From sequence record DRR723986_6929: a stretch of DNA of 23,305 bases; one strand, 5' to 3'. The notes below the pieces were generated by a model, which saw only the letters and a program-made list of their open reading frames with translations, had not been told where the DNA came from and made no database searches. The first letter of the stretch is position 1. Each line of letters opens with the position of its first letter. The translations under genes and the position numbers were made by a program. Below are positions 3,500 through 23,044 of this stretch, piece after piece.

Positions 3500-4919
3500 C
3501 GGTTTGCGCCTTAACAAAATCTTTTGCAGTGGCGGCCCGGTCAGCCTTAAAAAGCGCTGCTTGCGCAGAGATTGCATGTTGTTGCTGAACGGTAACCTGA
3601 TAGGCTTCAAAAGCGCCGCGCCGCGCGACAACCAGATCCTCGCGCAGTCTGTCAAGCTTCGCACGCGCAGCCCCGTAAATCGCCAAATTGCAGGTGGTCT
3701 CACCGCCGGTTGCCGATCTGATACCCGGTGTCGCCGCATCAGAAGCCGCCTTGGAAATCAGGAAATCAATGTTGGTCAGTAGATCATCAAACACTCGGTA
3801 GGCAAGCGAGGATGCGATCGGAAACTCGTAGGCGCCCACGGCCTGATCAAGGGAACCATTAAGAACACCGTTTCTGACAATTTCCCAAACAGGCTGCGCC
3901 GACTGGTTGATAAAATTAACCTCATCGGCGGTGAAAGCGCGTTTGCTTTTGACCCCCGCACCAATATCCAGCATGTTCTGCCGCACCATGGAAATAACCG
4001 ACACAGCTGTTGCCCGGCTACAGGGGCCGCCGCTTGCTGGCCTGCCCTCAACCTCGCCTGTCAGAAAATCATAGGATGAGAAACGATCAACGCGCGGACA
4101 ACGATCAATGCTTCGGATGGTGGGGGCGTTCTCGCTTGAAGGCCAACTGATGAGGATGTCGCCGATGTATGCCCGGACGATCGGTGCCATATCAAGCATA
4201 CCAACACGCTCAGCAGCGTGATCAATCACTGACCCGTCAGCAAACAACTCTCTGACGGCAGCAGGACATGCTGCCACCTCGCCGTGCAGATCAACAGGCA
4301 CCTGGTTATCATTGTCGCGGATCGATTGCTGCGCGCCGTGATAATGTTTCTCGACCGCTTCTTCCAGGCTTCTCGAACCTGTTGCCTCCTCGAGCACGTT
4401 CGAGATAAAATCGGGATTATCGCCCGTTACAAGCTTGGCTACCTGATTGGCCATCCTGCAATCATTGACCTGGATCGAATTCAGAAACGATGAGGTGGCC
4501 TCCAGTTTGCTCATCACGTCTTCGCATGTTTCGCAGTGCGCTTTAAGCGCCATTGAAAAGGCAAGCGCCGGTGCGGCTTGTAAAATATTTTCAAACTTTT
4601 CCACAAGATACTCAGGGTCTAAAAAACTTAGACCGCCCGCAAACAAATCAATACCGCCGCAGCCTGCCCGCACGCGCGGCGGAGAGACAGAAAAGGGATT
4701 GTCTGTCGCGAGCCTGAACCGGCCATTGAACTGACCACCCTGAATATAGCCGCGGCGCTGACCCGAGAAGGACGAAGGCCCGCTATGGGTCATGGAATCG
4801 AACCAATCCTTGGTCCAATCCTGGCCAGTGGCGGACAGGCTGAAGGAGCCCAAATAGACTAAAATACTGAGGCACACAGGCGCCTTTAAAAAAGATCGTT
4901 TCATCGGTCGCTCCTTCAT
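3492..4919 (-). CDS. traH: Conjugal transfer pilus assembly protein TraH
   Basis: Signal peptide and TraH hallmark PPRVRAGCGGIDLFAGGLSF, plus ALAFSMAL...CETC and DC. traF-traH-traG synteny. Confidence 0.95.
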   Translation of the reverse strand: MKERPMKRSFLKAPVCLSILVYLGSFSLSATGQDWTKDWFDSMTHSGPSSFSGQRRGYIQGGQFNGRFRLATDNPFSVSPPRVRAGCGGIDLFAGGLSFLDPEYLVEKFENILQAAPALAFSMALKAHCETCEDVMSKLEATSSFLNSIQVNDCRMANQVAKLVTGDNPDFISNVLEEATGSRSLEEAVEKHYHGAQQSIRDNDNQVPVDLHGEVAACPAAVRELFADGSVIDHAAERVGMLDMAPIVRAYIGDILISWPSSENAPTIRSIDRCPRVDRFSSYDFLTGEVEGRPASGGPCSRATAVSVISMVRQNMLDIGAGVKSKRAFTADEVNFINQSAQPVWEIVRNGVLNGSLDQAVGAYEFPIASSLAYRVFDDLLTNIDFLISKAASDAATPGIRSATGGETTCNLAIYGAARAKLDRLREDLVVARRGAFEAYQVTVQQQHAISAQAALFKADRAATAKDFVKAQTDG

Positions 4920-5776
4920 TGCTTGTTCAGGTCAAGGTGGTTTTCAAAAGCGGCGCTGCGGGTATCGAAAAAACCGCCGTCATCACTCTCGCTGTTCAGG
5001 AACTGCTGGACAATGATTTCGCCCTTCAGGACGCGGATCGCACGGTAAGCGTTATCGCTCACTTCGGGCAAACTGACCGCACCTGCCGATACCGGAAACC
5101 ACTCACGGCTGTTCTTCCGGATCAAGATGGTCATCGGCGTACCGGTCACGTTGAACCGGGCTGCGCGTTCGGGGTACTCTGCAACATCCACTTTGGTAAC
5201 GTTCCAGCCGGTGCGGTCCTGAAAGGCCTGCAATACGCCCCACTGAACACCGCAAAACCCGCACCCTTGAGAAGAAAACATCACCAGAGCAAACTCGCCG
5301 CGCTCCGCCTGAAGACGGATATCTTTTTCCGCCTTGCGTTCGCGGCTCCGTATTGTCCTGCCCGCGTTTGTGATGGGATAGCTTGTGCGGGCATTCAGGG
5401 CCGGGTTTTTGAGCAGTGCAACACTCGTGAGCGCGGTGAAGGTGCGCGACCGGCGGCGGACAAAATCGAGGAGGGTGAAATACTCGGCGACCTCGCCGAC
5501 CTCTTCGCTGACAATGGCAAAGGAGAGCTGCGCCTCCATCAACTCACCGACCGCTTTTGGCGTCATTTTTGTGAGGATCTCAAAAGATGGCAGCTCGGGC
5601 TCATAGGCAAAATCGGGATTAATCTCCTCAACTTCCTTTGGTGGGTCCTGGTACCAATTCCACCCGCGCTTCTCACTGGGTTCCTGCCCAAATACGCTGG
5701 AGACCACGCACAAAAAAAGCGTGAAAGTAACGACCATCAGGTTGACGGTCCGTTTTACCCAAGAACGCGCGCTCAT
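4916..5776 (-). CDS. traF: Conjugal transfer protein TraF (thioredoxin-like fold)
   Basis: Signal peptide, GWNWYQDP motif, CGFC and GTP (cis-Pro) motifs. ATGA overlaps with both neighbours. Confidence 0.92.
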   Translation of the reverse strand: MSARSWVKRTVNLMVVTFTLFLCVVSSVFGQEPSEKRGWNWYQDPPKEVEEINPDFAYEPELPSFEILTKMTPKAVGELMEAQLSFAIVSEEVGEVAEYFTLLDFVRRRSRTFTALTSVALLKNPALNARTSYPITNAGRTIRSRERKAEKDIRLQAERGEFALVMFSSQGCGFCGVQWGVLQAFQDRTGWNVTKVDVAEYPERAARFNVTGTPMTILIRKNSREWFPVSAGAVSLPEVSDNAYRAIRVLKGEIIVQQFLNSESDDGGFFDTRSAAFENHLDLNKQ

Positions 5777-6276
5777 AACACTTTTTCCACTATGACTGCG
5801 CTGCCAAGGGAAACGAAGCCATAGTAACGGCTGTCATAGCCATCTGGATGATCCGTCCCAGCAAAGAAAACATCATTGGGTACTGGGCCTTCAGACCAAT
5901 CAAAAACACGTAAGGAGCCACCCGTTTTGGTCTCCCTTTTGGCGCGCGTGATCTTCTCACCGTTACAGTAGAAGTCGAGGCCGTCACGTTTTAGAATGTC
6001 CCCTGAAAAACAAAGCACATGCTTGGTCATATGATTGACGCCTGCCGGCAGCAGGGGATCATCTCGCTTGAACATCACCGTTGCTTGTTTCTCAACCGCA
6101 AGATCAGGCCACATTTTAAAGATTTTACCGTCAACCGAGGCGGTCATATTAAACGCGTAGCGCCCGGCGACTTCACCGACAAAGCCGAACCAGAGCAGTG
6201 CAAGTGCTAGGACAGGAAGTGATCGCCGCCATTCACGTGCGAGCTTGATACTATTGAACCAGATAAAACTGATCAT
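5773..6276 (-). CDS. trhF: S26-family conjugative signal peptidase (TrhF-like pilin-processing peptidase)
   Basis: N-terminal TM segment, NMTASV (catalytic Ser), MTKHV (catalytic Lys), DGYDSRYYG box. Confidence 0.85.
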   Translation of the reverse strand: MISFIWFNSIKLAREWRRSLPVLALALLWFGFVGEVAGRYAFNMTASVDGKIFKMWPDLAVEKQATVMFKRDDPLLPAGVNHMTKHVLCFSGDILKRDGLDFYCNGEKITRAKRETKTGGSLRVFDWSEGPVPNDVFFAGTDHPDGYDSRYYGFVSLGSAVIVEKVL

Positions 6277-7046
6277 CGGACCTCTCCTGTGTTTTGAAGG
6301 GTTTTCAGCAGCGGGCGCGCCCGGCGGTCGCCGAGCGCGATGAGGGCTTGAAAATGGCCCGAAAGATGCGCGTCGCCGTATGTAACGAAACTGCCGAGCG
6401 CTGCTGCCGCTTCCTCGTCCGGTCGCTCGCAGTAAGCCGCAAAGGGATCGCGGTCAACGGTGGTTACAGCCGGGACACGCTCGACGCCGTTTGCCCTGAA
6501 CATCAGCGGATCGATGATGACGCCGATATCATATATGTCACAGTCCTGGCCTTTACATTCAGGGTCCTTGAGAATGATTTTATGGGCCAGTTCAACAATC
6601 GGCTGAATTTTGGCAAGACCACCCGGTATGCCTCTGAACACCATAACACCGTTTGATTTCTCAAGCTGGGCCGCGTATGCTCGAAGCACCCCAAGGGGTA
6701 CCGACTGCGAGGCGAAGAGGATTGCTCGAAAAGAACCTTCGGACCTTTCACTTGAAAAGTTAGTTTCTTTTTCCCTTCCCGCCTCGCTGCCGGTAACAGC
6801 GAGGGCTCCCCGAACTCGAGAGCCCATTTGTTTGGTTAGGTCCACCATGCCTTTTTCGCGGAACGCCTCGGCAACCGCTTTGGCGCGCTTTTCAATCTCC
6901 TCAGATGTTTCCTGAATTTCAGTTGGAGGCGTGTCTTCGTTCTCGCTTTGGCCGTACAGCGTGCTCGCCGCTCCCAACCAGAAAATGAGCGAGCCGACAA
7001 CAATCCGGCTAGCCAGCCGAAAGCTAATATTTCCACCTCTCCTCAT
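6273..7046 (-). CDS. trbC: Type-F conjugative pilin assembly protein TrbC
   Basis: Signal peptide; FASQSVP, VFRGIPGG and IDPLMFRANGVERVP motifs typical of TrbC_Ftype. Confidence 0.88.
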   Translation of the reverse strand: MRRGGNISFRLASRIVVGSLIFWLGAASTLYGQSENEDTPPTEIQETSEEIEKRAKAVAEAFREKGMVDLTKQMGSRVRGALAVTGSEAGREKETNFSSERSEGSFRAILFASQSVPLGVLRAYAAQLEKSNGVMVFRGIPGGLAKIQPIVELAHKIILKDPECKGQDCDIYDIGVIIDPLMFRANGVERVPAVTTVDRDPFAAYCERPDEEAAAALGSFVTYGDAHLSGHFQALIALGDRRARPLLKTLQNTGEVR

Positions 7047-9130
7047 TGGTCTTTCCCCGCTTGAATGAAGGCGTCCAGGCCTTGCTCAAAACTGTCTTTG
7101 AGCTGCGCTTCCGAGCGCGCGGCCAATTCGTCGTAATATTCGCTGAGGTCCATGTCGGAAAAGTTGAGCGCCTGAAACTCGGCGGGCGTAAAACCGCGAC
7201 ACTCGGGCGTTTTTGGCTCGCCGAAACCATCAAAGTTTTTAAGCTGTTCGCGGCCCTGCTGGTGAATGATCCGGCCAAGTTTGGAGTTGAAACAGCAAAA
7301 GGAACGTGCCTTTTGAATGCACCCAATGAAGGGGATGCGGGCGACACAGTATGTACCGACAAAATGACACATGCCGGAGCTATCCAGGAGCGCGGTCTCA
7401 AAGTCCTGCTGATCACAGCCAAAGCCAAGCAGTTCATTAAACAACAGATACACGCCGGCCCCTATGATGGCGGGGCCGCCTGCCGCCGCCAGTGCCGCTG
7501 TACCTGCGCTCGCCGCACTTGCCGCTGTTGCGCCGCTGGCAAGAGCGCTCACAGCCGCACTGGCGCCGGAAAACACCGCAATAACCGTCGATACGGTCGC
7601 CGCAGCGCCCAACCCGCCAGCGCTATCGGTCAGTATTTCGCCGCGATTTTTACAACAATTCTTGAACAGGGTGAGCAACCCGGGGCGCTGGCAGTCCATG
7701 CCCCGTCCGGTGAAAACCTGCACATCGTTGAGGCATTCGCCGCTCGCATCAATTGTACCGTCGTTGACGTAAGCCACACGCTCCCGCTGCAACTCTTCGA
7801 TAGGCGCGTCGGTTGTGTTAACACATAGTGTATCAGAACACTTACTGACGCCGTCGCCCCCCAGGAAGCATTCATCAACGCCTTCCAACGGGCAAGAGTC
7901 CGGCAGCGGTTCATCGCGGCACTGGCCCGCCACAGTGATTTGCACGCACTCTCCCGGCACCACACGCTGCGAGCATTCGCCCAGCACCCGCTCATCGCGG
8001 CAATCGCCGGGAACAACTTCGCTGCGGCAAGCACCAGGAACGGTGACGTCCCGGCACACTGGCGGCGGATTAATTGTTCTACAGTCGCCGGGCACGGTAA
8101 CCGTGCGGCATGCCCCGGGTGTCACGGTATCTTCGCAAGTCCCTGGCACCTCAACGTTTCGGCACCGGCCCCGCTCAGTAACTTGGCGACACTCACCTTG
8201 CACCGTCACAGTGCGGCACGCACCGGGTACGGTCACATTTTGACAGGCCCCTGGAACCCGAACGTCGCGGCAACTCCCCGGGGTCGTAATATTCCTGCAA
8301 GTGCCGGGTACTGTGACATTGCGGCATGCCCCCGGCACACTGATGGTGCGACAAGCGCCCGGGACAATCTCTGTGGTACATTCGGTGCATGCTCGCGTAT
8401 TTCTGCTGGTGCAGCCTGGTTTTCGCACGGTGGTACAGACCCGCCGGATTGTATCTGCATCGCATACCCGGCGGTTGGTCGTCGGATCGCAAACTCTGGT
8501 GGTTGTGGAGGGGTCGCAGATACGCGTTGTTGTTGCGGGATCGCATTCGCGGCGTGTTGTATCGGGGGCGCACTGGCGCTTTGTGGTCGCGGGATCACAA
8601 ACCCGTCTTGTGGTATTTGGATCGCAAACCCTCCTGGTCCGATCAGGATCACACACCCGGTGAGTTTCCGCAGGCTCGCAAACTCTTGTTGTCGTATCGG
8701 GGTCGCACTCACGGCGAGAGCTATCAGGGTCACATTCTTCGTAAGGTTGGACCGGCGTGCATTCCCGGCGCGATGTATCAGGCTCACAGATACGGCGCGC
8801 CGTATCAGGGTCGCAGCGGCGAACAACTGTATCGGGTTCACATTCATTGATGACCTCGTCAGGTGTGCAGCTGGTCTGCGTCTTATCCGCGTCGCAGACC
8901 TGGTGCACACGGTTTGTGACACATTCAGTGGCGCTCAGCGGACATACGCCGTTATCGCAGTCCGCGATTTCTCCCTCGCCGTCATAGTCACCGTCGCCGT
9001 TGCGGTCGATGCCGCAAAAGGTACGTCCCTGCAATGCTGTCAGGTCCTGGCCGCTGCTCGGGCTAAAGACGGCAACAGCACTCAATAGGAATATGGCTAC
9101 TGCAAGGCTTGTCGAGTGCCGCTGGTACAT
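7043..9130 (-). CDS. traN: TraN C-terminal part (TraN2) with large Cys-periodic repeat insertion
   Basis: TraN C-terminal signature (FTGRGMDC...NCC...GC...GMCHFVGTYC...SFCCFNSKLGRIIHQQGREQL...PECRGFTPAEFQALNFSDMDLSEY). ATG at 9130 has an AGGA RBS and its own signal peptide (MYQRHSTSLAVAIFLLSAVAVFSPSSG). 695 aa. Confidence 0.92.
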   Translation of the reverse strand: MYQRHSTSLAVAIFLLSAVAVFSPSSGQDLTALQGRTFCGIDRNGDGDYDGEGEIADCDNGVCPLSATECVTNRVHQVCDADKTQTSCTPDEVINECEPDTVVRRCDPDTARRICEPDTSRRECTPVQPYEECDPDSSRRECDPDTTTRVCEPAETHRVCDPDRTRRVCDPNTTRRVCDPATTKRQCAPDTTRRECDPATTTRICDPSTTTRVCDPTTNRRVCDADTIRRVCTTVRKPGCTSRNTRACTECTTEIVPGACRTISVPGACRNVTVPGTCRNITTPGSCRDVRVPGACQNVTVPGACRTVTVQGECRQVTERGRCRNVEVPGTCEDTVTPGACRTVTVPGDCRTINPPPVCRDVTVPGACRSEVVPGDCRDERVLGECSQRVVPGECVQITVAGQCRDEPLPDSCPLEGVDECFLGGDGVSKCSDTLCVNTTDAPIEELQRERVAYVNDGTIDASGECLNDVQVFTGRGMDCQRPGLLTLFKNCCKNRGEILTDSAGGLGAAATVSTVIAVFSGASAAVSALASGATAASAASAGTAALAAAGGPAIIGAGVYLLFNELLGFGCDQQDFETALLDSSGMCHFVGTYCVARIPFIGCIQKARSFCCFNSKLGRIIHQQGREQLKNFDGFGEPKTPECRGFTPAEFQALNFSDMDLSEYYDELAARSEAQLKDSFEQGLDAFIQAGKDQ
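7892..8380 (-). repeat. Intragenic 27-bp/9-aa tandem repeat, return arm (C-R-x-V-T-V-P-G-A; 19 Cys, 18 intervals)
   Basis: A Cys codon every 27 nt from 8380 to 7894, read from the translation. Confidence 0.95.
8435..8923 (-). repeat. Intragenic 27-bp/9-aa tandem repeat, outbound arm (C-D-P-x-T-T-R-R-V; 19 Cys, 18 intervals)
   Basis: A Cys codon every 27 nt from 8923 to 8437, read from the translation. Confidence 0.95.
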
Positions 9131-11079
9131 GTCAGGTCCTGTCCCGCTAACCGAAAGGTTTGCATGATCGTGACCGCGTCGTTGAATTCGGTTAGACAAC
9201 CACAGTCGTTCACGATGGTTTCGCCCGGACCAACCGGGCAGACATTCCCTGCACAAGAATGATAAGTATATTTTTTTGTCGTTGGACTTTTCAGGAGCGC
9301 GCCTGCGACGCCGCTCGATGACACTTCAGTGTCGGTTTCATCGATGCTGACTTCGCATATTTTTTCGCAAGCTTCGATGCCGTATTCAGCATCAAAACTA
9401 TAGCTATCGGTATAATTCTGCAGCGTTCCATCGTTGCCAGGCCTCAGATCAGAAAACTGGTCTATGCCGGAATTTGAATAAATATGGGCCGAGCGAGCGA
9501 AATCAAAGCCGCGCGCGCCAGCACTGGACGCCTCACACTCATATGTGCGGTCACGCTGATACCAATCACGGCTGAAGGTTTGTGTGCATTTGGCACCGTA
9601 AAGTGTGCGGGTTTGCGCGATTGGCGTCAGGCCGGTACGGCCTCCCTTTAACCAGGTACGCACACCGTCAACAGTTTCATCCACCAACCTGCACTCTTCG
9701 TTGGAAGCATGAGAGGCACATGTATTGTCGAGTGTTTCCACCAGTTCGCAGCCGGGCCGGTAGCGTATGCGGCCACGGATTTGGCCGCTACCCCGCTTTT
9801 GAACGGCTATTTTGAGTAGCATTCGGTTGGTGCCGTCCCGGAGCGCGTGCCGGAAGCTTCGATTAATCTGAGTTGTTTCCTGATCGTCAATCTGACATTT
9901 GCTCGGGTCTGACACGCCGTTAAAGCCACCAGTTGAAAAAATCGCAGTGCCGTTCAGGCTGATATGGATTTGGTCTTCATAGGTTGCTGAGGTAAGCACA
10001 GCCTCGCTAATTCGCTCCACTTCGCCGACACTCCAGATAATCTCGCGTGTGAATATATTGCAGCCTTTTTTGACCAAATGGTTATCGGTGTCATCACCGA
10101 GCGCAAATTCGAAACAATCGGGATCGCCAGCGCAAGCACCTTCACCGTAGTCGGTTGACGCGGTCACACGGTTGATAATGTCTGCCGGCAAAACCTCCTC
10201 AAGCGTCACTTGCCGTTCAATTTGACAGTCATTCCGGGTTAGTAGGACACCCTCACCCGAAGGTATGTTTGAGACGAGCCCAAAGATAGTATCGCTGGAA
10301 CTTGCAGCGAACGCATCACTTGAAAGGCGCGCGGGTGTTTCGAAATACTCGTGCTGCGCTGCATCCAGTTCCGGCGCGCAGGCGCTGGCATCCTGGCCTG
10401 CAAGCTTGATGATAAAATCCTCCCGGCTCACCGTACTAACCGCATAGCGCGGATCACGTTCCATCAAGGCTCCCGCCATGCCTCCAGCCAAATCGTCAAG
10501 GATGGTTGACCGGTTGGAGAAAGCCAGATTGCCGCCGCAGCTATCATTGACGCAGTAACATCCGGCCAACTCGGCAAGACCAACCTCAATGAGACCAAGT
10601 CGCGTGCTTGCATCCGCTGACCAGCGATAGGAGGCACAGTTATCAAATGTGCCCGCATTGCAAGTGATGATGCCGTTGGCGCACACGCCTGCGACCGGGT
10701 TATCGAAGGCCACATTCCAGTCATAGCGACCATCAAAGTTGGTGTCCTGCTGGACGCTGATCGGTGATAAATCACCGCCGCTGCCAATACCGTAAAATAG
10801 CTCAAGATAACTGTTGGACGCCGGACAGGACAGCCGTTGATTGAAACTGGTTTTGCCGTCAAGCGTGGTAAAGCGACTGCCACTGGTCAGCGGGGCGGTA
10901 AAGTTCCGCTCAAAAGCTTGCTTGTCGCCGAACCGTGCTTTGATTGCATCATAGTTTTGCTGTGCTGCATCCTTTTGAGCATCACTTTCCTGTGCAGATA
11001 AAGTATGGGCAGACAAAATACCGGCACAAACAAAGACCAGTCCAAAGGCCAATGCAAAAGCCGGCGCTACTGCGGGCAT
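9097..11079 (-). CDS. Secreted Cys-rich protein, probable TraN N-terminal part (TraN1)
   Basis: Signal peptide and 25 Cys in the mature region. Occupies the traN position between traU and the TraN C-terminal gene. ATG at 11079 is 1 bp after the traU stop; GTG at 11094 is an alternative. Confidence 0.75.
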   Translation of the reverse strand: MPAVAPAFALAFGLVFVCAGILSAHTLSAQESDAQKDAAQQNYDAIKARFGDKQAFERNFTAPLTSGSRFTTLDGKTSFNQRLSCPASNSYLELFYGIGSGGDLSPISVQQDTNFDGRYDWNVAFDNPVAGVCANGIITCNAGTFDNCASYRWSADASTRLGLIEVGLAELAGCYCVNDSCGGNLAFSNRSTILDDLAGGMAGALMERDPRYAVSTVSREDFIIKLAGQDASACAPELDAAQHEYFETPARLSSDAFAASSSDTIFGLVSNIPSGEGVLLTRNDCQIERQVTLEEVLPADIINRVTASTDYGEGACAGDPDCFEFALGDDTDNHLVKKGCNIFTREIIWSVGEVERISEAVLTSATYEDQIHISLNGTAIFSTGGFNGVSDPSKCQIDDQETTQINRSFRHALRDGTNRMLLKIAVQKRGSGQIRGRIRYRPGCELVETLDNTCASHASNEECRLVDETVDGVRTWLKGGRTGLTPIAQTRTLYGAKCTQTFSRDWYQRDRTYECEASSAGARGFDFARSAHIYSNSGIDQFSDLRPGNDGTLQNYTDSYSFDAEYGIEACEKICEVSIDETDTEVSSSGVAGALLKSPTTKKYTYHSCAGNVCPVGPGETIVNDCGCLTEFNDAVTIMQTFRLAGQDLTCTSGTRQALQ

Positions 11080-11080
11080 G

Positions 11081-12058
11081 TTACGGGGTGACACAGCAAA
11101 ATACCTTTTCAAAAATCTGCCAAGCGTAATTATCTTGGCTAGGTGGATGTTTGAGACTGCTCCACAAGAGACCAGTGCGCCCAATGTTCACGCAGCTTGA
11201 TTGTTTGACCGGGCGCATTTCCTGCATTTTATAGAGCGACTTGGTCCAGATCGGCGCTAAGCGCTCGCCGCAGCCATTCCTCATGCTTTCGCGGGCAAGC
11301 CCGAGCCTTCCTGCGGTAAATATCTGTTTGGCGGCGATGGCGGCATTTGCTTCCACATGATCAGCGCTCGAAGACCGCCCGCCGAGCGGATAGGTCAGGC
11401 CCCACCCGCCCATGCACCAAAAGAGAGCATCAATAGTGCCGCCAGTGTGGCTAACCCCGGCATCTGCAACGCAGGCCAATAGTGCGGCAGGATTGCCGAA
11501 CAAAACCGCTTCAGGATTAATAATTGAGCCAAGCACTTCGTTTTGATAGGTGGGCAACACTTCGGAGATTAGCGCCACGTCGAAACCGCGCGTCTCCAAA
11601 CATGGGATATCCTGAAATAGTCCCAGCATCGCCCATACGGGCGCGATATAAACATGGGTCTGCGCGAAGGTGGTTCCCTGCCGGTGCGTGTTTCGTGTGC
11701 TCCCATGCAACCGGCCATTTTCTGCCAAAATATCAACGCCGAGCGGCATCATACACCCGGGATTTTCCACTGTATCGATCCAGCGATTGGGAGCCCAAAA
11801 ATTAACCCGAATGCCGGGCAGCGGGATGCCAAACGAGCTGGGGCAAAAGCATATGGGCGAGCGCGGATTATCAGCATCCAGCGGCGATTTGGACCCAATG
11901 CTTATACCCGCGATTTGAACCGGGAAAATACACGGCCAGTGCACGCTGGTGAGTGGGTTGATAAAACCCTGATCGCACGGCGACGCTGTTGCCGGTTTTG
12001 GTGCTGACACCGCACCCACAAAAGTCAGAAAACCAATGATGAGAAGCTTTCTAATCAT
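11081..12058 (-). CDS. traU: Conjugal transfer protein TraU
   Basis: FINPLTSVHWPCIFP, PICFCP, FWAP...VENPGC, ACVAD, LFWCMGGWG..YPLGG and terminal CC. GGAGG RBS before ATG 12058. Confidence 0.95.
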   Translation of the reverse strand: MIRKLLIIGFLTFVGAVSAPKPATASPCDQGFINPLTSVHWPCIFPVQIAGISIGSKSPLDADNPRSPICFCPSSFGIPLPGIRVNFWAPNRWIDTVENPGCMMPLGVDILAENGRLHGSTRNTHRQGTTFAQTHVYIAPVWAMLGLFQDIPCLETRGFDVALISEVLPTYQNEVLGSIINPEAVLFGNPAALLACVADAGVSHTGGTIDALFWCMGGWGLTYPLGGRSSSADHVEANAAIAAKQIFTAGRLGLARESMRNGCGERLAPIWTKSLYKMQEMRPVKQSSCVNIGRTGLLWSSLKHPPSQDNYAWQIFEKVFCCVTP

Positions 12059-18783: not shown

Positions 18784-19146
18784 TTAGATTAAAAAACCAA
18801 CAGTGGTGACGATATCTTCGCCCGCAACCATTGCCGTTGTGCCAGCAAAACCGCCGCCCATGGCCCACCAGTTACGGTTGGCAATGCCGAAGATGCCGAA
18901 GACGACGCTTGCGACCGCGATCATTGCACCAATGGGGCCTTCAATGCCGTCGTTAACGATGATGTCATATATCTCGAACGCGAGATCACCGGATGTGGGC
19001 GCAGTGAAAGCGAGCACCGGCGCCGATGCCACTACCAACAGCGCTATCAGCGCAGTACGGTCCAGGGTTTTGAGAACGGTGCCACCTACGCGGATATTAT
19101 CCGGCTCCGACACCTCGGGGTGAAACAGATTGCTCCATAAATTCAT
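18784..19146 (-). CDS. traA: Conjugative pilin precursor TraA (TrhA-like)
   Basis: Long leader ending VLA, then a ~74-aa mature part with GPIG and two hydrophobic helices. Directly upstream of traL. Confidence 0.8.
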   Translation of the reverse strand: MNLWSNLFHPEVSEPDNIRVGGTVLKTLDRTALIALLVVASAPVLAFTAPTSGDLAFEIYDIIVNDGIEGPIGAMIAVASVVFGIFGIANRNWWAMGGGFAGTTAMVAGEDIVTTVGFLI

Positions 19147-19964
19147 TGGTCGTCTCCTGTTGGGGTTTCTTGAGAGCTTGCAGCAAGGAGATATTCACGG
19201 ATTTTCACCTCGTCGAAGCCTCGGATGCGTTCGCCGTCCGCGAACAGGGTTGGGGTGGAAGAAACGCCCGCCGCTTGCGTAATCTGGATATGCTGTTGCA
19301 CACGGGCATTGCCGTCGTCGCAGTGTAGCAGTTGCCCTGGGGTCTTGCGGCTATACACATCCGCAAAGGCACGTTCAGGATCGTCGGAGCACAAAATATG
19401 CTCGGCCAGATCCTGTGATTGGCGCGAATGGCCGACGGCAAAAATGATCTGGCGACGCACAGCAAGTGCGCGCCCTTCATTGTCGAACCAGCCATGCAGA
19501 CGCTGGCACCAGCCACAGAGAGGATTGGAATATTCGGTGAGCAGCGGCGCGTCTTCCGGGCCGAACTCGAGCGCGACGCTCAAATCCAAATCCTGGAGCC
19601 GTTCAGCGGCCGCCGCAGCGACGGCGACTTGTGACAGGTTCTCGCCGCGATCATTATACATTTCGCCGAAGATCAATACGCTGGCGTCCGGCGAATAATA
19701 GACGATATTGCCGCCAGTATCGATTTCATAGAGGCCGCCAACAGCGGACGGTTTGATCGAATAGAACTGAAAATTTGAGAAGCTCGACTTGAGCAGCTGT
19801 TCGGCCTGGGCTTGTATATGGTCCATGCCAGGATTGATCTTCTGCTCGGTCTTCTGGGCGGTGCTTTGGACCGTGTTTTCGTCTTCAGCCCACAACGGGA
19901 GGCCGCAAGCGCTCAGTATCAACGCGGCAGCAGCGCCCGATTTTACTATTCGGTGGATAATCAT
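19143..19964 (-). CDS. dsbC: DsbC-family thiol:disulfide isomerase
   Basis: Signal peptide, DsbC N-terminal dimerisation region (PSAVGGLYEI...IVY...LIFGEMY), NPLCGWC active site, GVSSTPTL cis-Pro loop. Confidence 0.9.
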   Translation of the reverse strand: MIIHRIVKSGAAAALILSACGLPLWAEDENTVQSTAQKTEQKINPGMDHIQAQAEQLLKSSFSNFQFYSIKPSAVGGLYEIDTGGNIVYYSPDASVLIFGEMYNDRGENLSQVAVAAAAAERLQDLDLSVALEFGPEDAPLLTEYSNPLCGWCQRLHGWFDNEGRALAVRRQIIFAVGHSRQSQDLAEHILCSDDPERAFADVYSRKTPGQLLHCDDGNARVQQHIQITQAAGVSSTPTLFADGERIRGFDEVKIREYLLAASSQETPTGDDQ

Positions 19965-20148
19965 AGGTCAGTCTCCAATGGCGATCGCACGCAACGATCA
20001 AACGCCGCACGGCGGCAATGAACACCGTTTGGGAGAAAAATTTTTAAGCCGGTGGCTTTTGAAGCGAGGACAAAATCACATGACCGCTTCCCCCGTCAGG
20101 TCGCACCATTAGGGTTCCGCTGAATTTCAAAATTTCAAAGGAAAAACG

Positions 20149-20178
20149 ATTAAGAGGCTGGCATGCCACCCTCTTAAT
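20149..20178. promoter_or_regulatory. 30-bp near-perfect palindrome upstream of the tra operon
   Basis: ATTAAGAGG-C-TGGCATGCCA-C-CCTCTTAAT, one C/C mismatch, flanked by A- and T-tracts. Function (operator, terminator or oriT) is unresolved. Confidence 0.6.
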
Positions 20179-20394
20179 TTTTTTCGTGGCCAATCCTACA
20201 CTATTGAATTCACGCTATTTTTTACAGCTGCTTCGCATTGAATTCACGGCAAAATTATTTTGTTTTATGCATTAATTATGCATATTTTTTTCAACCACTT
20301 AAAACTGATCGCATGAATCAAAGAGTCTCGCCCTATGTTGAGCGCCGCAAACAAAATTCAATAAATGTGCCATTCATTTTAGCGAAAAATATGG

Positions 20395-20422
20395 TTGAAT
20401 TTAATACAACTCTGGGTATAAT
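20395..20422 (+). promoter_or_regulatory. Putative sigma70 promoter for the Xre regulator
   Basis: TTGAAT (20395-20400), 16-bp spacer, TATAAT (20417-20422), ~140 bp upstream of ATG 20564. Confidence 0.5.
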
Positions 20423-20563
20423 AAATGGACCTTATGGGGACTCGGGTAAAAATAGACAAAGGATGCTTGTCGGTTTTTCACCTGACCAATAGGAACTAAT
20501 TCTGCCAGTGTCGAAGCGGGGCAATGCTATAGGTCTTTCGCACGACTAAGGTGGGGACGGGAC

Positions 20564-20821
20564 ATGGAACCTTCTTTTTGCATCGCTATCAAAACCATGC
20601 GGGAGCGTAAAGGCTTGCTCCAGAAATATGTAGGCTGGACATCAGGCCTTGGGCCCGTGCGCTACAACCAAATCGAAAACGGCAAGCCGCCAACAGATGA
20701 AGAACTTGCCGAAATTGCCCGTGCGATGGACACTGATCCTCCGTCAATGGCTATATTTTGGGGCGAATTGATGCGCGAAAACGCAGGAAGCAATTCCAAG
20801 TCTAATCGGTTGGTATCTTGA
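20564..20821 (+). CDS. Xre/Cro-CI family HTH transcriptional regulator
   Basis: IKTMRERKGLLQ...SGLGPVRYNQIENGKPPTDEELAEIARAM fits the HTH_3 pattern. Divergent from the tra operon. Confidence 0.85.
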   Translation: MEPSFCIAIKTMRERKGLLQKYVGWTSGLGPVRYNQIENGKPPTDEELAEIARAMDTDPPSMAIFWGELMRENAGSNSKSNRLVS

Positions 20822-21167
20822 AATCGATTGACCAATCTGATCGTTCATAAACAACGATAATCTGATCATCGCTGTCGGTCATGCGCACACCGCGAAGCGC
20901 CAAGGCGCTTTCTACTTTCTTCAAATACATTTCACAGGTTGCTATATCCAGATCACAATAGGTATCGAGAATTTTTGAAAGATGGCCTTGCGACACATCA
21001 ATTTCTCTCGCAATGTCCGACATGCGCAGATCGAGCGATTTGATTGCCCCCTTGAGTACCCGTCCTTTTTGGGCACACTGAAGCCTCAAATAAGGGTTAT
21101 CCGCCATTTTTTGCCGGCGCGGTACGCCCGCAGTGCCGGTTTCAGTATGGTGCTTGGAATTGCCCAT
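20802..21167 (-). CDS. HTH domain DNA-binding protein
   Basis: LKGAIKSLDLRMSDIAREIDVSQGHLSKIL is an Xre-like HTH. G-rich RBS before ATG 21167; alternative start at MADNP. Confidence 0.75.
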   Translation of the reverse strand: MGNSKHHTETGTAGVPRRQKMADNPYLRLQCAQKGRVLKGAIKSLDLRMSDIAREIDVSQGHLSKILDTYCDLDIATCEMYLKKVESALALRGVRMTDSDDQIIVVYERSDWSIDFKIPTD

Positions 21168-21483
21168 AGACCCCCCACCTAATAGCCACTGACGCTATTC
21201 CTATTGTCCGCAACAATGTGCCCATGGTTTTTGCCGCGATGACCAGACCCAATCCCCACCTGATAAAATACACCAGCTGGTTTGGAGGATCAAATCCAAT
21301 TTGAAGATGGGCGAGACCAATCCGTTGTAAGCCGTTTTAGAGATTATCTTTTTTCGGTTTCAATCGGCTTTTCAGAACAGAGGCAAATTGAAACTCAACC
21401 AGCCCTATTGTCAATTTACATTTTTTATGGCTTAATAATAAGGCTCGAAAAGAATAGTTGGACCTTCCGCAGAAGGACAACAG

Positions 21484-21906
21484 TTGAGCGCTCACAACAT
21501 TAAACGACCTCCTAACTGGACCCGCCCGGCACGTCTTTCAGGCGAGGACCAGACCTGCGAAGACTTGGATCGTGCTCTTAGGATTGCAGCCGAAATCACT
21601 TGTGATTACGGCGACAGATTTCTCGGGTTTTTCCAGATGATTGAGCGACGGCATGCAGCCCACATTGCAAAATCTATTGAACAACAAAAAGCGCGCAATC
21701 TGGCAGCCAATATCGCTAGTCGTCGCCGGGCAAATCCTGCGAAAGCATTAGCTTCCGCATCCAGCGCTGTTTCACCTTCAACGAAGGTCCAGCGCCGTAC
21801 TTTGGTCGCCCAAGCGCATGGCCAAACAACTCAACCTGCATTCGTTCAGGCGTCTCGACTTCATTCAGCCGGTCCTGAAATCCGTGACGAAGGCTATAAA
21901 GAGTAG
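21484..21906 (+). CDS. Hypothetical protein convergent with, and overlapping, the integrase
   Basis: TTG start with AGGA RBS. The first ~77 aa lie outside the integrase and look helical (EDLDRALRIAAEI...GDRFLGFFQMIERR). The last 191 bp overlap int antisense. Confidence 0.55.
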   Translation: MSAHNIKRPPNWTRPARLSGEDQTCEDLDRALRIAAEITCDYGDRFLGFFQMIERRHAAHIAKSIEQQKARNLAANIASRRRANPAKALASASSAVSPSTKVQRRTLVAQAHGQTTQPAFVQASRLHSAGPEIRDEGYKE

Positions 21907-23044
21907 CACCAGGAACAAGTATTTTATTTTCCCTGAAAAACTTGCCAATGGCGTTCACACAGCTGACGTGCCTTTCCACGTATCGTGGAAACCCGTCCGG
22001 AAATTTCTGAAAAGCCTTCAAAGCCGATCCAACCAGCGGAATATCGCGTCTGCTAACTTTGGTTTTCAACATGCCGAATTTGTTTTCCCGTATCTTGAAA
22101 TGTGGCACGTCCGCGTCCAGCACAATATCATTTGGCGCACGGGTGATGACCTCAACGGGCCGAGCACCGGTTTCAGCACATATATAAACGATATGGCGCG
22201 CCTCCTCATTGAGACCTGCAAGAGGGTTATTGTTATAAAGGCAGTGCAAAATCTCTTTCTTGGTCATTGATACCCGTTCTTCGCTATAGCCTTTCTGTAG
22301 TCTCAATCCGCCTGAAAACGGGCTTTTAAGATTAATACCCTGAACATCGAATACCTTTTGGATAATGCCGCTTAATAGCTCCATGTCCTTGTTGGCGGTA
22401 TCGGCTTTCACTTCATCCGCTTCGACCAGGTCCAACCACCAGTTACGATATTCAATCGCATCCGGCCGGGTTATTTGATAAATATCCTTATCGCCGATCA
22501 CCTTGATAAACTTGCGTACGCATCGCTTGCGCGCATGGGTCCAGATTCTTGTCTGGGAATCATTTTTCCCCCTGATTTTGTCTCGTGTGTTTTCCCAATA
22601 AATTTCGAGCGCTTCCGACAAGGGCAATTCAGGTTTCTCAACAGTGCCGAGCAAGGCTTCGGCTGCTTCGGCCTTTTGTATCGGGTCGTTGATTTCATCA
22701 ACAACATCCAATCGCTCCACCAGTTCGCTTATAGGAGCGACATCCAACTCGGGTAGAGTTTTATAGTCGAATCCAAACTGCCGGGCATTGGCGATGGCGG
22801 CTTCAAACCGGTTCCGCGCCACCGGATCGCGCCCAGTTCTGCGGAATTTTGCCCATGTTTCTTCTACTGCGTCGTTGATGTTATCGCGGCGATGGAGTGC
22901 TTGCAGTAAATTACTGGTGTCCAGCGACTGTTGAATGAAAGGACGGCCGCCATATAAAGACAATAGATCCTTGGGAACCCGCCGATAATAATAGGCATGT
23001 CCTTTAATCCATTTCAGATATTTGTCTTTGCAGTTAACACCCAT
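21716..23044 (-). CDS. int: Tyrosine recombinase/integrase with DUF6538-like N-terminal domain
   Basis: N-terminal YYYRRVPKDL...SLDT. Catalytic set TGARP.E, LKT, YSLRH (Tyr at the usual His of HxxR), FGH, PKYG. GGAGG RBS. Adjacent to a tRNA. Confidence 0.93.
   Translation of the reverse strand: MGVNCKDKYLKWIKGHAYYYRRVPKDLLSLYGGRPFIQQSLDTSNLLQALHRRDNINDAVEETWAKFRRTGRDPVARNRFEAAIANARQFGFDYKTLPELDVAPISELVERLDVVDEINDPIQKAEAAEALLGTVEKPELPLSEALEIYWENTRDKIRGKNDSQTRIWTHARKRCVRKFIKVIGDKDIYQITRPDAIEYRNWWLDLVEADEVKADTANKDMELLSGIIQKVFDVQGINLKSPFSGGLRLQKGYSEERVSMTKKEILHCLYNNNPLAGLNEEARHIVYICAETGARPVEVITRAPNDIVLDADVPHFKIRENKFGMLKTKVSRRDIPLVGSALKAFQKFPDGFPRYVERHVSCVNAIGKFFRENKILVPGATLYSLRHGFQDRLNEVETPERMQVELFGHALGRPKYGAGPSLKVKQRWMRKLMLSQDLPGDD

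Follow-up and report, generated by a model that had tools for sequence, protein, structure and literature searches.

The tips of TraN proteins decide which recipients are open to an F-type plasmid or integrative conjugative element (ICE). In the parts of Low et al. (2022; PMC9246713) used here, an extended N-terminal beta domain of IncF TraN carries the tip, pKpQIL TraN inserts a beta-hairpin with a Cys on either side into the porin of the recipient, the succession of an outgoing arm, a tip, and a returning arm is the general plan of TraN, and a content of at least 20 Cys is a criterion for TraN. In TraN of the IncF, IncA/C, and IncH types, conjugation requires the tip region, which also determines the specificity for recipients (excerpts of PMC9246713 and of bioRxiv 10.1101/2025.11.14.688549). 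The work so far has concerned TraN from enterobacteria and Acinetobacter, which have folded tips. Cystine-ladder hairpin peptides (theta-defensins and the protegrin/tachyplesin/gomesin class) have one to three rungs that are 2–4 residues apart, within about 18 residues, and in fibrillar and trimeric-autotransporter adhesins the repeat number of the stalk sets the projection distance of the binding tip. The TraN analyzed here, which is encoded in a stretch of DNA of 23,305 nt (the window), belongs to a clade that appears to have adopted a different solution, with almost no tip on a putative very long stalk.

On the minus strand, the window carries dsbC, traL, traE, traK, traB, traV, traC, traW, traU, an unknown ORF, traN, trbC, an S26 peptidase gene, traF, traH, and traG, in this order. 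The location of traN between traU and trbC in an F-type (MPF-F) tra operon, together with a match of 71.2 bits to PF06986 (F_T4SS_TraN; cut-off 23, E = 1.3e-19), confirmed that the gene product is TraN, as the initial annotation had proposed. The match lies in the C-terminal part only, with the best stretch at residues 567–648 on profile positions 161–240, and PF06986 is carried by 74 of the 74 homologues. Likewise, the wider TraN family matches only the C-terminal part (about residues 400–690). With 57 Cys and an N-terminal signal-like sequence, the protein is a secreted Cys-rich protein with well over 20 Cys. All 13 matching NCBIfam TraN models scored far below their curated cut-offs (the best, NF009013, with 100.2 bits against 605), and the protein falls outside the full-length equivalogs defined by TIGR02750 (81.6 bits against a cut-off of 422.45) and the PRK12355/PRK14876 models. 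Eleven of the 13 matches are confined to about residues 518–682, and the two longer ones cover residues 385–682 (NF009013) and 260–672 (NF009019). According to the translation, the signal peptide has no lipobox Cys, and its sequence suggests cleavage after ...SGQ. The columns of the base frame are invariant in the homologue alignment. Short relatives without the ladder share this frame and have a hairpin of only two to three rungs; therefore, the ladder is an expansion at the position of the tip.

Features of traN and of neighbouring genes in the window (positions in nt; residues counted from the ATG at 9130)
Feature	Position	Strand	Description
traN CDS	7043..9130	(-)	695 aa, 57 Cys; translated from ATG 9130
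Putative Sec-type signal peptide	9047..9130	(-)	about residues 1-28, end ...SGQ/D; from translation and AF2 helix at residues 2-20
Base frame, residues 39-69	8924..9016	(-)	Cys39, DxNxDGxxD Ca-binding-like loop (42-50), Cys58, Cys63-Pro-Leu
Outbound arm, Cys70-Cys232	8435..8923	(-)	19 Cys, 9-aa spacing
Tip, residues 233-250	8381..8434	(-)	18 residues, Cys240 and Cys248
Return arm, Cys251-Cys413	7892..8380	(-)	19 Cys, 9-aa spacing
Conserved TraN C-terminal domain, residues 414-695	7043..7891	(-)	Ala/Gly-rich predicted helical segment, about 508-567
Upstream Cys-rich secreted protein	9097..11091	(-)	664 aa, 26 Cys, no known family
DsbC-like disulfide isomerase	19143..19964	(-)	DsbC_N and Thioredoxin_2; intact CGWC, CxxC at residue 150
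TraF-family thioredoxin-fold protein	4916..5776	(-)	PF13728 and Thioredoxin; intact CGFC, CxxC at residue 172

The translation reproduced, at the same coordinates, the pattern that had first been noticed, that is, 19 + 19 Cys with a spacing of exactly 9 residues (at residues 70, 79, and so on to 232 in the outbound arm, and at 251, 260, and so on to 413 in the return arm), separated by an 18-residue turn with two additional Cys. Across homologues, the consensus repeats are C-DPDTTRRV in the outbound arm, which consists mainly of T, R, D, C, P, and V, and C-RNVTVPGE in the return arm, which consists mainly of V, C, T, R, P, and G. The longest run of equally spaced Cys in 20,000 shuffles of the protein was 6 (in 8 shuffles), compared with the observed 19; because no shuffle exceeded a run of 6, chance is excluded as the origin of the ladder. 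The nucleotide sequence indicates that the repeats are old at the DNA level; the 27-nt units are on average 50–51% identical (maximum 78%). Tandem Repeats Finder returned 0 rows for the DNA, and no inverted DNA repeats were found. A DNA palindrome or an assembly artefact was ruled out by the divergence of the 27-nt units and the lack of inverted repeats, and the mirror symmetry described below is therefore a property of the protein. The orthologue of Kordiimonas aquimaris JCM 16665, a marine isolate that is non-pathogenic, has the same 19 + 19 ladder and is 95% identical, with 35 of the 695 residues differing, none of them at a Cys; indeed, every ladder Cys is conserved. As judged from the sequence, the ribbon has polar or charged residues on its two faces and offers nothing for a core. 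The tip is probably a small basic loop closed by a disulfide, for which Cys240 and Cys248 are the putative partners. The number of Cys in the mature protein, 57, is odd, and therefore at least one Cys must be outside intramolecular pairs. The 9-residue period with its Pro-containing kinks could supercoil.

In common with classical TraN, the protein has the same Pfam family in its C-terminal domain, the same position in the operon, many Cys, and a chain that runs from the base out to the tip and back to the base; in classical TraN, the tip mediates the contact with the recipient, as far as described in the excerpts considered. In contrast to classical TraN, the whole putative extracellular part is strictly periodic, with 9 residues and one Cys per repeat, and its N-terminal part showed no similarity to that of classical TraN. 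Unlike TraN-S of the IncF type, ladder TraN lacks a beta-sandwich or other folded tip: only 18 residues are available between the arms, and the AF2 models contain no folded domain there. Other Cys-laddered TraN clades (P0078, 981 aa; P0023; P0082) share the base loop C-G-x-D-x-[DN]-x-D-G and also have long, evenly spaced Cys runs on both sides of a central region, for example, 14 Cys at an exact 12-residue spacing in P0078. However, their period is 12 residues, alternating between 11, 12, and 13 on the return, and is not strictly mirror-equal; furthermore, modules of two types alternate in them, with a C-P-x-G-Y motif, and their central tip is larger (gaps of 52 and 22 residues). The architecture had been put forward as new in the initial annotation. 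This holds for the degree and the regularity of the strict 9-residue ladder, but not for the principle, because the base-plus-tip topology of TraN is known and other clades have Cys ladders of their own. The ladder module is rare; it was found in 14 protein clusters, all of them TraN, and among at least 5000 matching plasmids in PLSDB, none covers at least 80% of the TraN. In agreement with the initial annotation, which knew of no such TraN, no description of a TraN with a 9-residue Cys ladder was found in the accessible text of the literature searched, and none of the words "stalk," "cysteine," and "hairpin" appears in the available portion of bioRxiv 10.1101/2025.11.14.688549.

The two arms are mirror images of each other not only in the window protein but throughout its ladder-bearing homologues. 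In the 11 full-length ladder proteins, without exception, the Cys–Cys spacings were compared outward and backward from the base; they were equal at 163 of 181 positions, and all mismatches adjoin the tip. Irregular rungs of 8, 6, and 5 residues are mirrored as well among homologues. In P0010, the spacing is 9 (11 times), 6, 9, 9, 9, 8 in both directions, and in P0011 it is 9 (eight times), 8 (five times), 6, 9, 9, again in both directions. Also in the repeat subtypes, 7-mer rungs face 7-mers in P0011, and 5-mer rungs face 5-mers in P0010 and P0011. An outbound repeat of the type xxQPPxRV is always opposite to a return repeat of the type xxVPQPDV, even though the rung number varies (rung 14 in P0010, 11 in P0009, 8 and 9 in P0013, and 12 in P0005). 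The two segments of the window protein that deviate most (residues 125–132 and 351–358) are both located between rungs 7 and 8. When the homologues are compared with the window protein, insertions and deletions in one arm correspond to those in the other in size and in height along the stalk, with 18/18 residues (outbound/return) in P0004, 27/27 in P0006, 36/36 in P0005 and P0008, 45/46 in P0009 from Eilatimonas, and 63/63 in P0013, the exceptions being P0007 and P0010 (27/36). The number of strictly 9-spaced repeats differs by one between the arms in 4 of the 11 homologues (16/15, 14/15, 14/15, and 11/12), and the tip region absorbs the difference. Thus, the comparison of arm repeat numbers that had been proposed as a check revealed arm lengths that are correlated, not independent. 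Mutual information between outbound and return segments was highest in the mirror register (a total of 28.0, compared with 17.1–21.9 at six other shifts), and was 4.39 on the antiparallel diagonal, compared with 2.06–2.83. The deviance from consensus of mirrored segments correlated with r = 0.386 at register 0 and 0.371 at register −1, a measure that cannot separate these two registers because divergence trends along the stalk.

The register was also evident in structure predictions. For the distal eight rungs (residues 167–316), AF2 yielded a model with a mean pLDDT of 87.8 and 93 of 150 residues at 90 or above; four of the five models exceeded 80, the fifth had a pLDDT of 34.7, the pTM was 0.34, and the prediction rests on 7 sequences. 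In this sub-model, strands 7–12, 16–21, and so on to 61–68 pair with 139–144, 130–135, and so on to 83–90, and for every strand pair i + j = 151 (483 in the full protein), the register that places Cys opposite Cys at the strand ends. In the outbound arm, strands of 6 residues end at each Cys and are followed by a 3-residue turn; in the return arm, 6-residue strands start at each Cys and mirror the outbound strands. The tip is the stretch with the lowest pLDDT (block mean 61). The full-length model (11 sequences) was poor, with a mean pLDDT of 45.1 and a pTM of 0.22, and was used not for shape but only for the DSSP periodicity and the mirror pattern of pLDDT; its pLDDT profile fits its own mirror image best at i + j = 479–488 (r = 0.88 and 0.80), and the value expected for Cys–Cys pairing is 483. 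When the arms were given as separate chains (60–241 and 242–423), two ESMFold2 runs without a homologue alignment or control folds gave a score of 0.00.

For neither AF2 model did Foldseek find a match in the PDB at E ≤0.001, a PDB sequence search gave 0 hits, and VIA-align against 48,161 chains returned four chains with Z ≥2, none with Z ≥5. The weak VIA matches (Z 2.9–2.5) were the pore stems of lysenin and of anthrax protective antigen and an HU-like beta-ribbon arm, and the weak Foldseek matches (E at least 6e-3) were aerolysin-type stems and phi29/Andhra tail hairpins. All of these are long two-stranded hairpins that were centered on the tip of the sub-model, and no other shapes were matched. 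The rmsd between the sub-model and compact capsid proteins was 50–65 Å, and therefore the model appears to be very elongated. The matched stems, tail hairpins, and HU/IHF-like arms differ from TraN in that they have 30–50 residues per strand and no disulfides, and their stability depends on an oligomeric barrel or on bound DNA.

Mirrored spacings, covarying subtypes, indels that match between the arms, the strand register in AF2, and the mirror symmetry of pLDDT bear out the proposal of antiparallel, in-register arms with Cys k facing Cys 20-k, and the suggested AlphaFold inspection, for residues 167–316, indeed revealed strands paired with Cys opposite Cys. A hairpin with this register is, on the grounds of the sequences and the model, very likely, and cross-arm disulfides, to which the register points, are likely. 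As the best overall explanation, we regard a cystine-ladder stalk that extends the reach of TraN as moderately probable. In this explanation, the protein is the mating-pair-stabilisation TraN of an F-type (MPF-F) conjugative element from a Kordiimonas-like marine alphaproteobacterium, and its C-terminal domain (414–695) and N-terminal Ca-loop frame (29–69) would make up a base anchored in the outer membrane. Between these base parts, the chain would pass through 19 nine-residue repeats on the way out, the 18-residue tip, and 19 repeats on the way back in register, each rung being an antiparallel beta-ladder of 6 residues with a facing Cys–Cys pair at its end, followed by a 3 + 3-residue kink (D-P-D outbound, P-G-x on the return). 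Most likely, the facing Cys would be oxidised to about 19 nested cross-arm disulfides, and the two CxxC oxidoreductases of the operon (DsbC-like with CGWC, TraF-family with CGFC) would probably aid their formation; the context for disulfides is given by the signal peptide of TraN and the presence of these two proteins.

The predicted product is a "cystine-ladder" ribbon made of two strands of one chain, which has polar faces and lacks a hydrophobic core. Were the ribbon as extended as in the model, each rung would contribute about 2.5–3 nm, and the stalk would measure tens of nm in all, with an upper bound of about 50 nm. The ribbon would hold a small, basic, disulfide-closed loop at the recipient surface, in the role of the tip domain of IncF TraN; the repeat number would set the stalk length and could change only via matched gain or loss in both arms. 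The model lends some preference to an extended over a supercoiled stalk. For a putative function as a reach-extending adhesin stalk, the chances are about even, and the outward orientation of the stalk and receptor contact by the tip are likewise inferred. As in cystine-ladder peptides, an antiparallel two-stranded hairpin with parallel cross-strand disulfide rungs would be formed, but with about 19 rungs that are 9 residues apart, about 340 residues long, and as a domain of an outer-membrane protein. The likeness to the stalks of fibrillar and trimeric-autotransporter adhesins is one of functional analogy only; the stalks of these adhesins consist of folded domains in series or of coiled coils, whereas TraN would be a single two-stranded ribbon that must lengthen in both arms at once. 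More tentatively, one may envisage a previously unseen rod, a ribbon of about 45–50 nm with about 19–20 nested cross-arm disulfides, by far the longest cystine ladder known, which would evolve by matched repeats and bring a 7-residue basic loop into a recipient receptor across thick surface layers. A bolder version, in which donor and recipient are bridged by a long beta-tube built from several hairpins, is less likely.

The alternative that survives best, although we consider it unlikely, is that the arms pair, with the kinked ribbon forming, by supercoiling or stacking, a compact two-start solenoid of a few nm, which would be a knob or spacer and not an antenna. In both arms, every 9-residue repeat carries a strong turn former (D-P or P-G), the two models have low pTM values (0.34 and 0.22), and the AF2 fold has no solved precedent, the best VIA Z score of 2.9 comparing with 7–8 typical for unmatched models. 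In addition, DUF3060 (PF11259) gave 19.8 bits on the full protein, below the cut-off of 23.1, and a borderline 26.7 bits on the stalk alone, in four stretches that are all in the return arm, a match that probably reflects similarity in repeat composition. However, a compact body would have to be built from a ribbon with two polar or charged faces and no core material, and the sub-model, which is locally confident, aligns only to long straight hairpins and deviates by 50–65 Å from compact proteins.

A role of the hairpin as an assembly element, with several TraN stalks, or the stalk and the upstream 664-aa protein, lying side by side as a sheet or beta-barrel tube, is improbable. The nearest, though weak, structural matches are hairpins that occur solely as parts of oligomeric barrels or tubes, the odd Cys count leaves room for one intermolecular bond, and the Cys-rich gene upstream, which is translationally coupled, co-occurs in relatives. 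Nevertheless, an amphipathic or interface-like face is missing, and the kinks every 9 residues break lateral hydrogen bonding. Members of the upstream family also occur next to a TraN without a ladder, as suggested by P0240 and P0015, whose longest contigs have the same length (107,349) and which are thus perhaps on one contig, and an upstream partner would therefore be independent of the ladder. Similarly improbable is a stalk that is directed into the periplasm or runs along the surface of the cell, as a ruler or tether of the T4SS, instead of contacting the recipient: its length, tens of nm, would resemble the cell-envelope width more than it resembles the short tip of IncF TraN, but by chain position the stalk replaces the very tip that, in the available excerpts for IncF, IncA/C, and IncH (PMC9246713; bioRxiv 10.1101/2025.11.14.688549), is needed for conjugation and recipient specificity. 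Other Cys-rich rods, such as modules of the EGFR/insulin-receptor type, use local disulfides. Unpaired arms that form independent repeat arrays with local intra-arm disulfides or bound metal, for which these rods and the C-x10/11-C modules of other TraN clades, able to close locally, provide a precedent, are very improbable, as such arrays leave the mirror-equal irregular spacings, the covarying subtypes, and the matched indels unexplained, the number of Cys per arm, 19, is odd, a tetrahedral metal site cannot be formed with a single Cys in every 9 residues, and AF2 pairs the arms.

Under the preferred reading of a reach-extending stalk, the role of reach in mating-pair stabilisation is directly testable by symmetric rung deletions, because the periodic stalk varies from 11 to 19 rungs among close relatives. 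For protein science, the predicted ribbon would be a natural, evolvable two-stranded beta-ribbon without a hydrophobic core, which could serve as a nanometre-scale spacer scaffold, and a demanding substrate for DsbC-type isomerases because about 19 nested disulfides would have to form correctly. As a sequence-only proof of a long-range fold, the covariation in mirror image between the repeat spacings is unusually clean. A stalk of about 45 nm fits poorly with the tight cell–cell junction implied by the contact between IncF TraN and the porin.

The upstream ORF overlaps the start of traN, whose ATG is located 34 nt before the end of this ORF; the gene for the 664-aa protein is translationally coupled to traN, and the protein is a possible partner of TraN. 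The numbering in the initial annotation implied a "TraN1" for this gene, but no TraN homology was detectable: a comparison of the ORF, as a candidate N-terminal half of TraN, with an alignment of classical TraN by hhalign gave a probability of 0.4, and the candidate was rejected. The protein had no Pfam and no NCBIfam hits. Its ESM-Atlas neighbours bear automatic TraN names, which is a lead only.

Translation of the traN open reading frame yielded the ladder that the initial annotation had described, with 19 + 19 cysteines at a nine-residue spacing and at the coordinates proposed. Shuffling the protein 20,000 times gave equally spaced runs of at most 6 cysteines, compared with the 19 observed.

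Features of the transfer operon and of the TraN ladder in the window
Feature	Coordinates	Strand	Remarks
TraF-family thioredoxin-fold protein	4916-5776	-	intact CGFC
S26 signal-peptidase-like gene	5773-6276	-	between trbC and traF
traN ORF	7043-9130	-	ATG at 9130; 695 residues, 57 Cys (translation)
Return arm	7892-8380	-	Cys251-Cys413, 19 Cys, exact 9-residue spacing (translation)
Tip	8381-8434	-	18 residues including Cys240 and Cys248 (translation)
Outbound arm	8435-8923	-	Cys70-Cys232, 19 Cys, exact 9-residue spacing (translation)
DxNxDGxxD loop	8981-9007	-	TraN residues 42-50
664-aa protein	9097-11091	-	secreted, Cys-rich (26 Cys), between traU and traN
DsbC-like thioredoxin-fold protein	19143-19964	-	intact CGWC
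Integrase	21716-23044	-	DUF6538 and phage-integrase N-terminal domain; upstream of the tra operon

The strongest part of the case for a putative hairpin comes from comparison of homologous sequences. A search of 5.8 billion proteins recovered 10 full-length ladder homologues (P0003-P0011 and P0013) and one fragment (P0012). Arm repeat numbers, proposed earlier as a check, were equal or differed by one in the eight uninterrupted ladders (19/19, 17/17, 16/16, 16/15, 14/15, 14/15, 13/13 and 11/12); the ladders of P0010 and P0011 are interrupted. Counts at two additional Kordiimonas loci are 17/17 and 16/16. When each protein was anchored at the conserved motifs flanking the ladder, and the spacings were read outward and backward from the base, they were mirror-equal at 163 of the 181 positions compared in the full set of 11 proteins, and all mismatches adjoined the tip. 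The irregular spacings are decisive, because parallel or independent arms would not yield mirror images: read in both directions, P0010 has eleven spacings of 9, followed by 6, 9, 9, 9 and 8, and P0011 has eight of 9, five of 8, and then 6, 9 and 9.

The residues between the cysteines follow the same register. The outbound proline-rich subtype xxQPPxRV always lies opposite the return subtype xxVPQPDV, although the rung (facing pair of ladder cysteines, counted from the base) that carries this pair varies by protein (8 and 9, 11, 12, or 14). Rungs of seven residues lie opposite others of seven, and rungs of five opposite others of five; in the window protein, both of the most aberrant segments lie between rungs 7 and 8. 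In MAFFT alignments with the window protein, indels at overlapping heights removed or added matched numbers of outbound/return residues (18/18, 27/27, 36/36 twice, 45/46 and 63/63); the exceptions are two proteins with 27/36. Mutual information between the arms peaked in the mirror register, with a total of 28.0 versus 17.1-21.9 in six shifted registers; a simpler test, the correlation of deviance between the arms, failed to distinguish shift 0 and shift -1. Together with the predicted register described below, these observations strongly support the antiparallel fold-back pairing suggested previously.

In the AlphaFold check proposed for nested Cys-Cys contacts, the predicted register of the distal eight rungs sets Cys opposite Cys, but the full-length AF2 model was poor (pLDDT 45.1, pTM 0.22). 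Two of its features are nonetheless informative: its DSSP assignment had, for each repeat in either arm, a 6-residue strand and a 3-residue turn, and its pLDDT profile matched its own mirror best at i + j = 479-488 (r = 0.88 and 0.80), with 483 expected for Cys-Cys pairing. For a sub-construct of residues 167-316, which spans the tip and the 8 rungs nearest to it, with 7 aligned sequences, the mean pLDDT was 87.8, with 93 of the 150 residues at 90 or above; four of the five models exceeded 80, and the fifth failed (34.7). Outbound strands finish, and return strands start, at each Cys, and the strand pairs all sum to 151, the register that sets Cys opposite Cys. Foldseek found no match with E ≤ 0.001 among solved structures, and in VIA, 4 of 48,161 chains reached Z ≥ 2 and none Z ≥ 5. 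The top matches, though weak, were without exception long two-stranded hairpins, placed symmetrically around the tip of the model: the pore stems of lysenin and anthrax PA, the ribbon arm of an HU-like protein, aerolysin stems, and tail hairpins of phi29/Andhra. Against compact capsid proteins, the rmsd of 50-65 Å suggests that the sub-model is a rod, which would be roughly 20 nm long for 8 rungs. Alternatively, the ribbon might supercoil at the D-P and P-G kinks instead of staying extended.

The mirror symmetry is a property of the protein rather than of the DNA, because Tandem Repeats Finder reported no repeats in the DNA, no inverted DNA repeats were found, and the 27-nt units have a mean identity of only 50-51% (maximum 78%). 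Outbound units and the reverse complement of return units share a mean identity of 27%. Thus, the ladder repeats are old at the DNA level.

As judged from profile and homologue searches, the similarity to the TraN family is confined to the C-terminal part of the window protein. PF06986 matched this part only (71.2 bits, cut-off 23), all 13 matching NCBIfam TraN models scored far under their cut-offs, and among the best 150 of 2767 matches in a library of 1.84 billion proteins, the best stretch began before residue 130 in only two (P0006 and P0049). Short alphaproteobacterial relatives (370-410 aa) have the same base frame, N-terminal residues 39-69, with a hairpin of just 2-3 rungs; therefore, at the position of the tip, the ladder is a lineage-specific expansion. 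The DxNxDGxxD loop lies at the base of the stalk, flanked by Cys39 and Cys58; it is invariant, and both the short relatives that have no ladder and gammaproteobacterial-type TraN (for example P0078) keep it. We take it to resemble the Ca-binding loops of the integrin/dockerin type. The nearest genome record, Kordiimonas aquimaris JCM 16665, encodes a 95% identical TraN, also with a 19 + 19 ladder, in which 35 of the 695 residues differ, none of them at a Cys.

That the rungs are disulfides is plausible, given the signal peptide, the conservation of all ladder cysteines, and the two CxxC proteins of the operon. The total of 57 cysteines is odd and the signal peptide contains none, so that at least one Cys of TraN is free or bonded to another molecule. 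As described for IncF TraN, the extended, β-rich N-terminal part bears a tip domain, the C-terminal domain is folded back onto the N-terminal one, and the element of pKpQIL TraN that enters the recipient porin is a β-hairpin with two flanking cysteines (PMC9246713). For the TraN classes of IncA/C, IncH and Acinetobacter plasmids, the main difference described in a preprint is the size and shape of the tip (bioRxiv 10.1101/2025.11.14.688549). The window TraN follows this known out-tip-back plan. The favoured reading of the ladder is a putative reach-extending stalk that would hold out its small, basic loop at Cys240-Cys248 to some component of the recipient surface, and stalk length would be tuned through matched repeat changes in both arms.

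A search restricted to the ladder returned 14 protein clusters, all 14 with a TraN domain. In three of these (P0038, P0049 and P0054), the same mirrored 9-residue module is embedded in TraNs of 905-948 aa; P0049 has spacings of 9x4, 6, 9x3 outbound versus 9x4, 6, 9x4 on return. In all three, about 220 aa are added on the N-terminal side, and more Cys repeats follow the ladder. Coverage of the window TraN stayed below 80% in each of the at least 5000 PLSDB plasmids that matched. In line with the earlier remark that no described TraN of this architecture was known, none of the papers searched describes a 9-residue Cys-ladder TraN. Strong novelty is nevertheless counted against, because the topology is known in TraN and other clades have Cys runs with a 12-residue period (P0078, P0023 and P0082). 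P0078 differs in having 14 cysteines at an exact 12-residue spacing, with two alternating module types outbound, and a return spacing of 11, 12 or 13 residues around a central region larger than the tip of the window TraN. Long Cys-laddered stalks may thus be a wider, under-described feature of TraN. The window TraN is structurally striking, with unusually clean sequence-level support for its predicted fold.

The window carries an F-type (MPF-F) transfer operon, with all genes on the minus strand in the order DsbC-like, TraL, TraE, TraK, TraB, TraV, TraC, TraW, TraU, the 664-aa protein of no known family, TraN, TrbC, S26 peptidase, TraF, TraH and TraG. Rather than a plasmid, the element is probably an ICE. 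A stretch of lower GC (0.44-0.50 vs ~0.54) at 20000-21700 adjoins the integrase, and the window contains no tRNA. The two CxxC proteins fit a heavy demand for disulfide isomerisation by TraN, the 664-aa protein, TraU and TraH (57, 26, 12 and 9 Cys, respectively). The S26-like gene has its best, though weak, match in TIGR02771, the pilin-processing peptidase TraF of the Ti type (37.8 bits, under the cut-off).

The stop codon of the 664-aa ORF falls 34 nt inside traN. Its product has no match in Pfam or NCBIfam, and its profile is not similar to that of classical TraN (hhalign probability 0.4), but its ESM-Atlas neighbours carry automatic TraN names. Its 56 homologues come from Kordiimonas, Eilatimonas, sphingomonads, Marinobacter and Geoalkalibacter. 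The protein may act as a partner of TraN, or it may supply the function of the N-terminal TraN domain that is missing. Some genomes may carry a pair of such elements that differ in stalk length: two Kordiimonas MAG records (L002 and L003) with different ladder TraNs (17/17 and 16/16 rungs) share one isolate label, and for the homologues P0222 and P0224 of the 664-aa protein the longest contig has an identical length (575,815).
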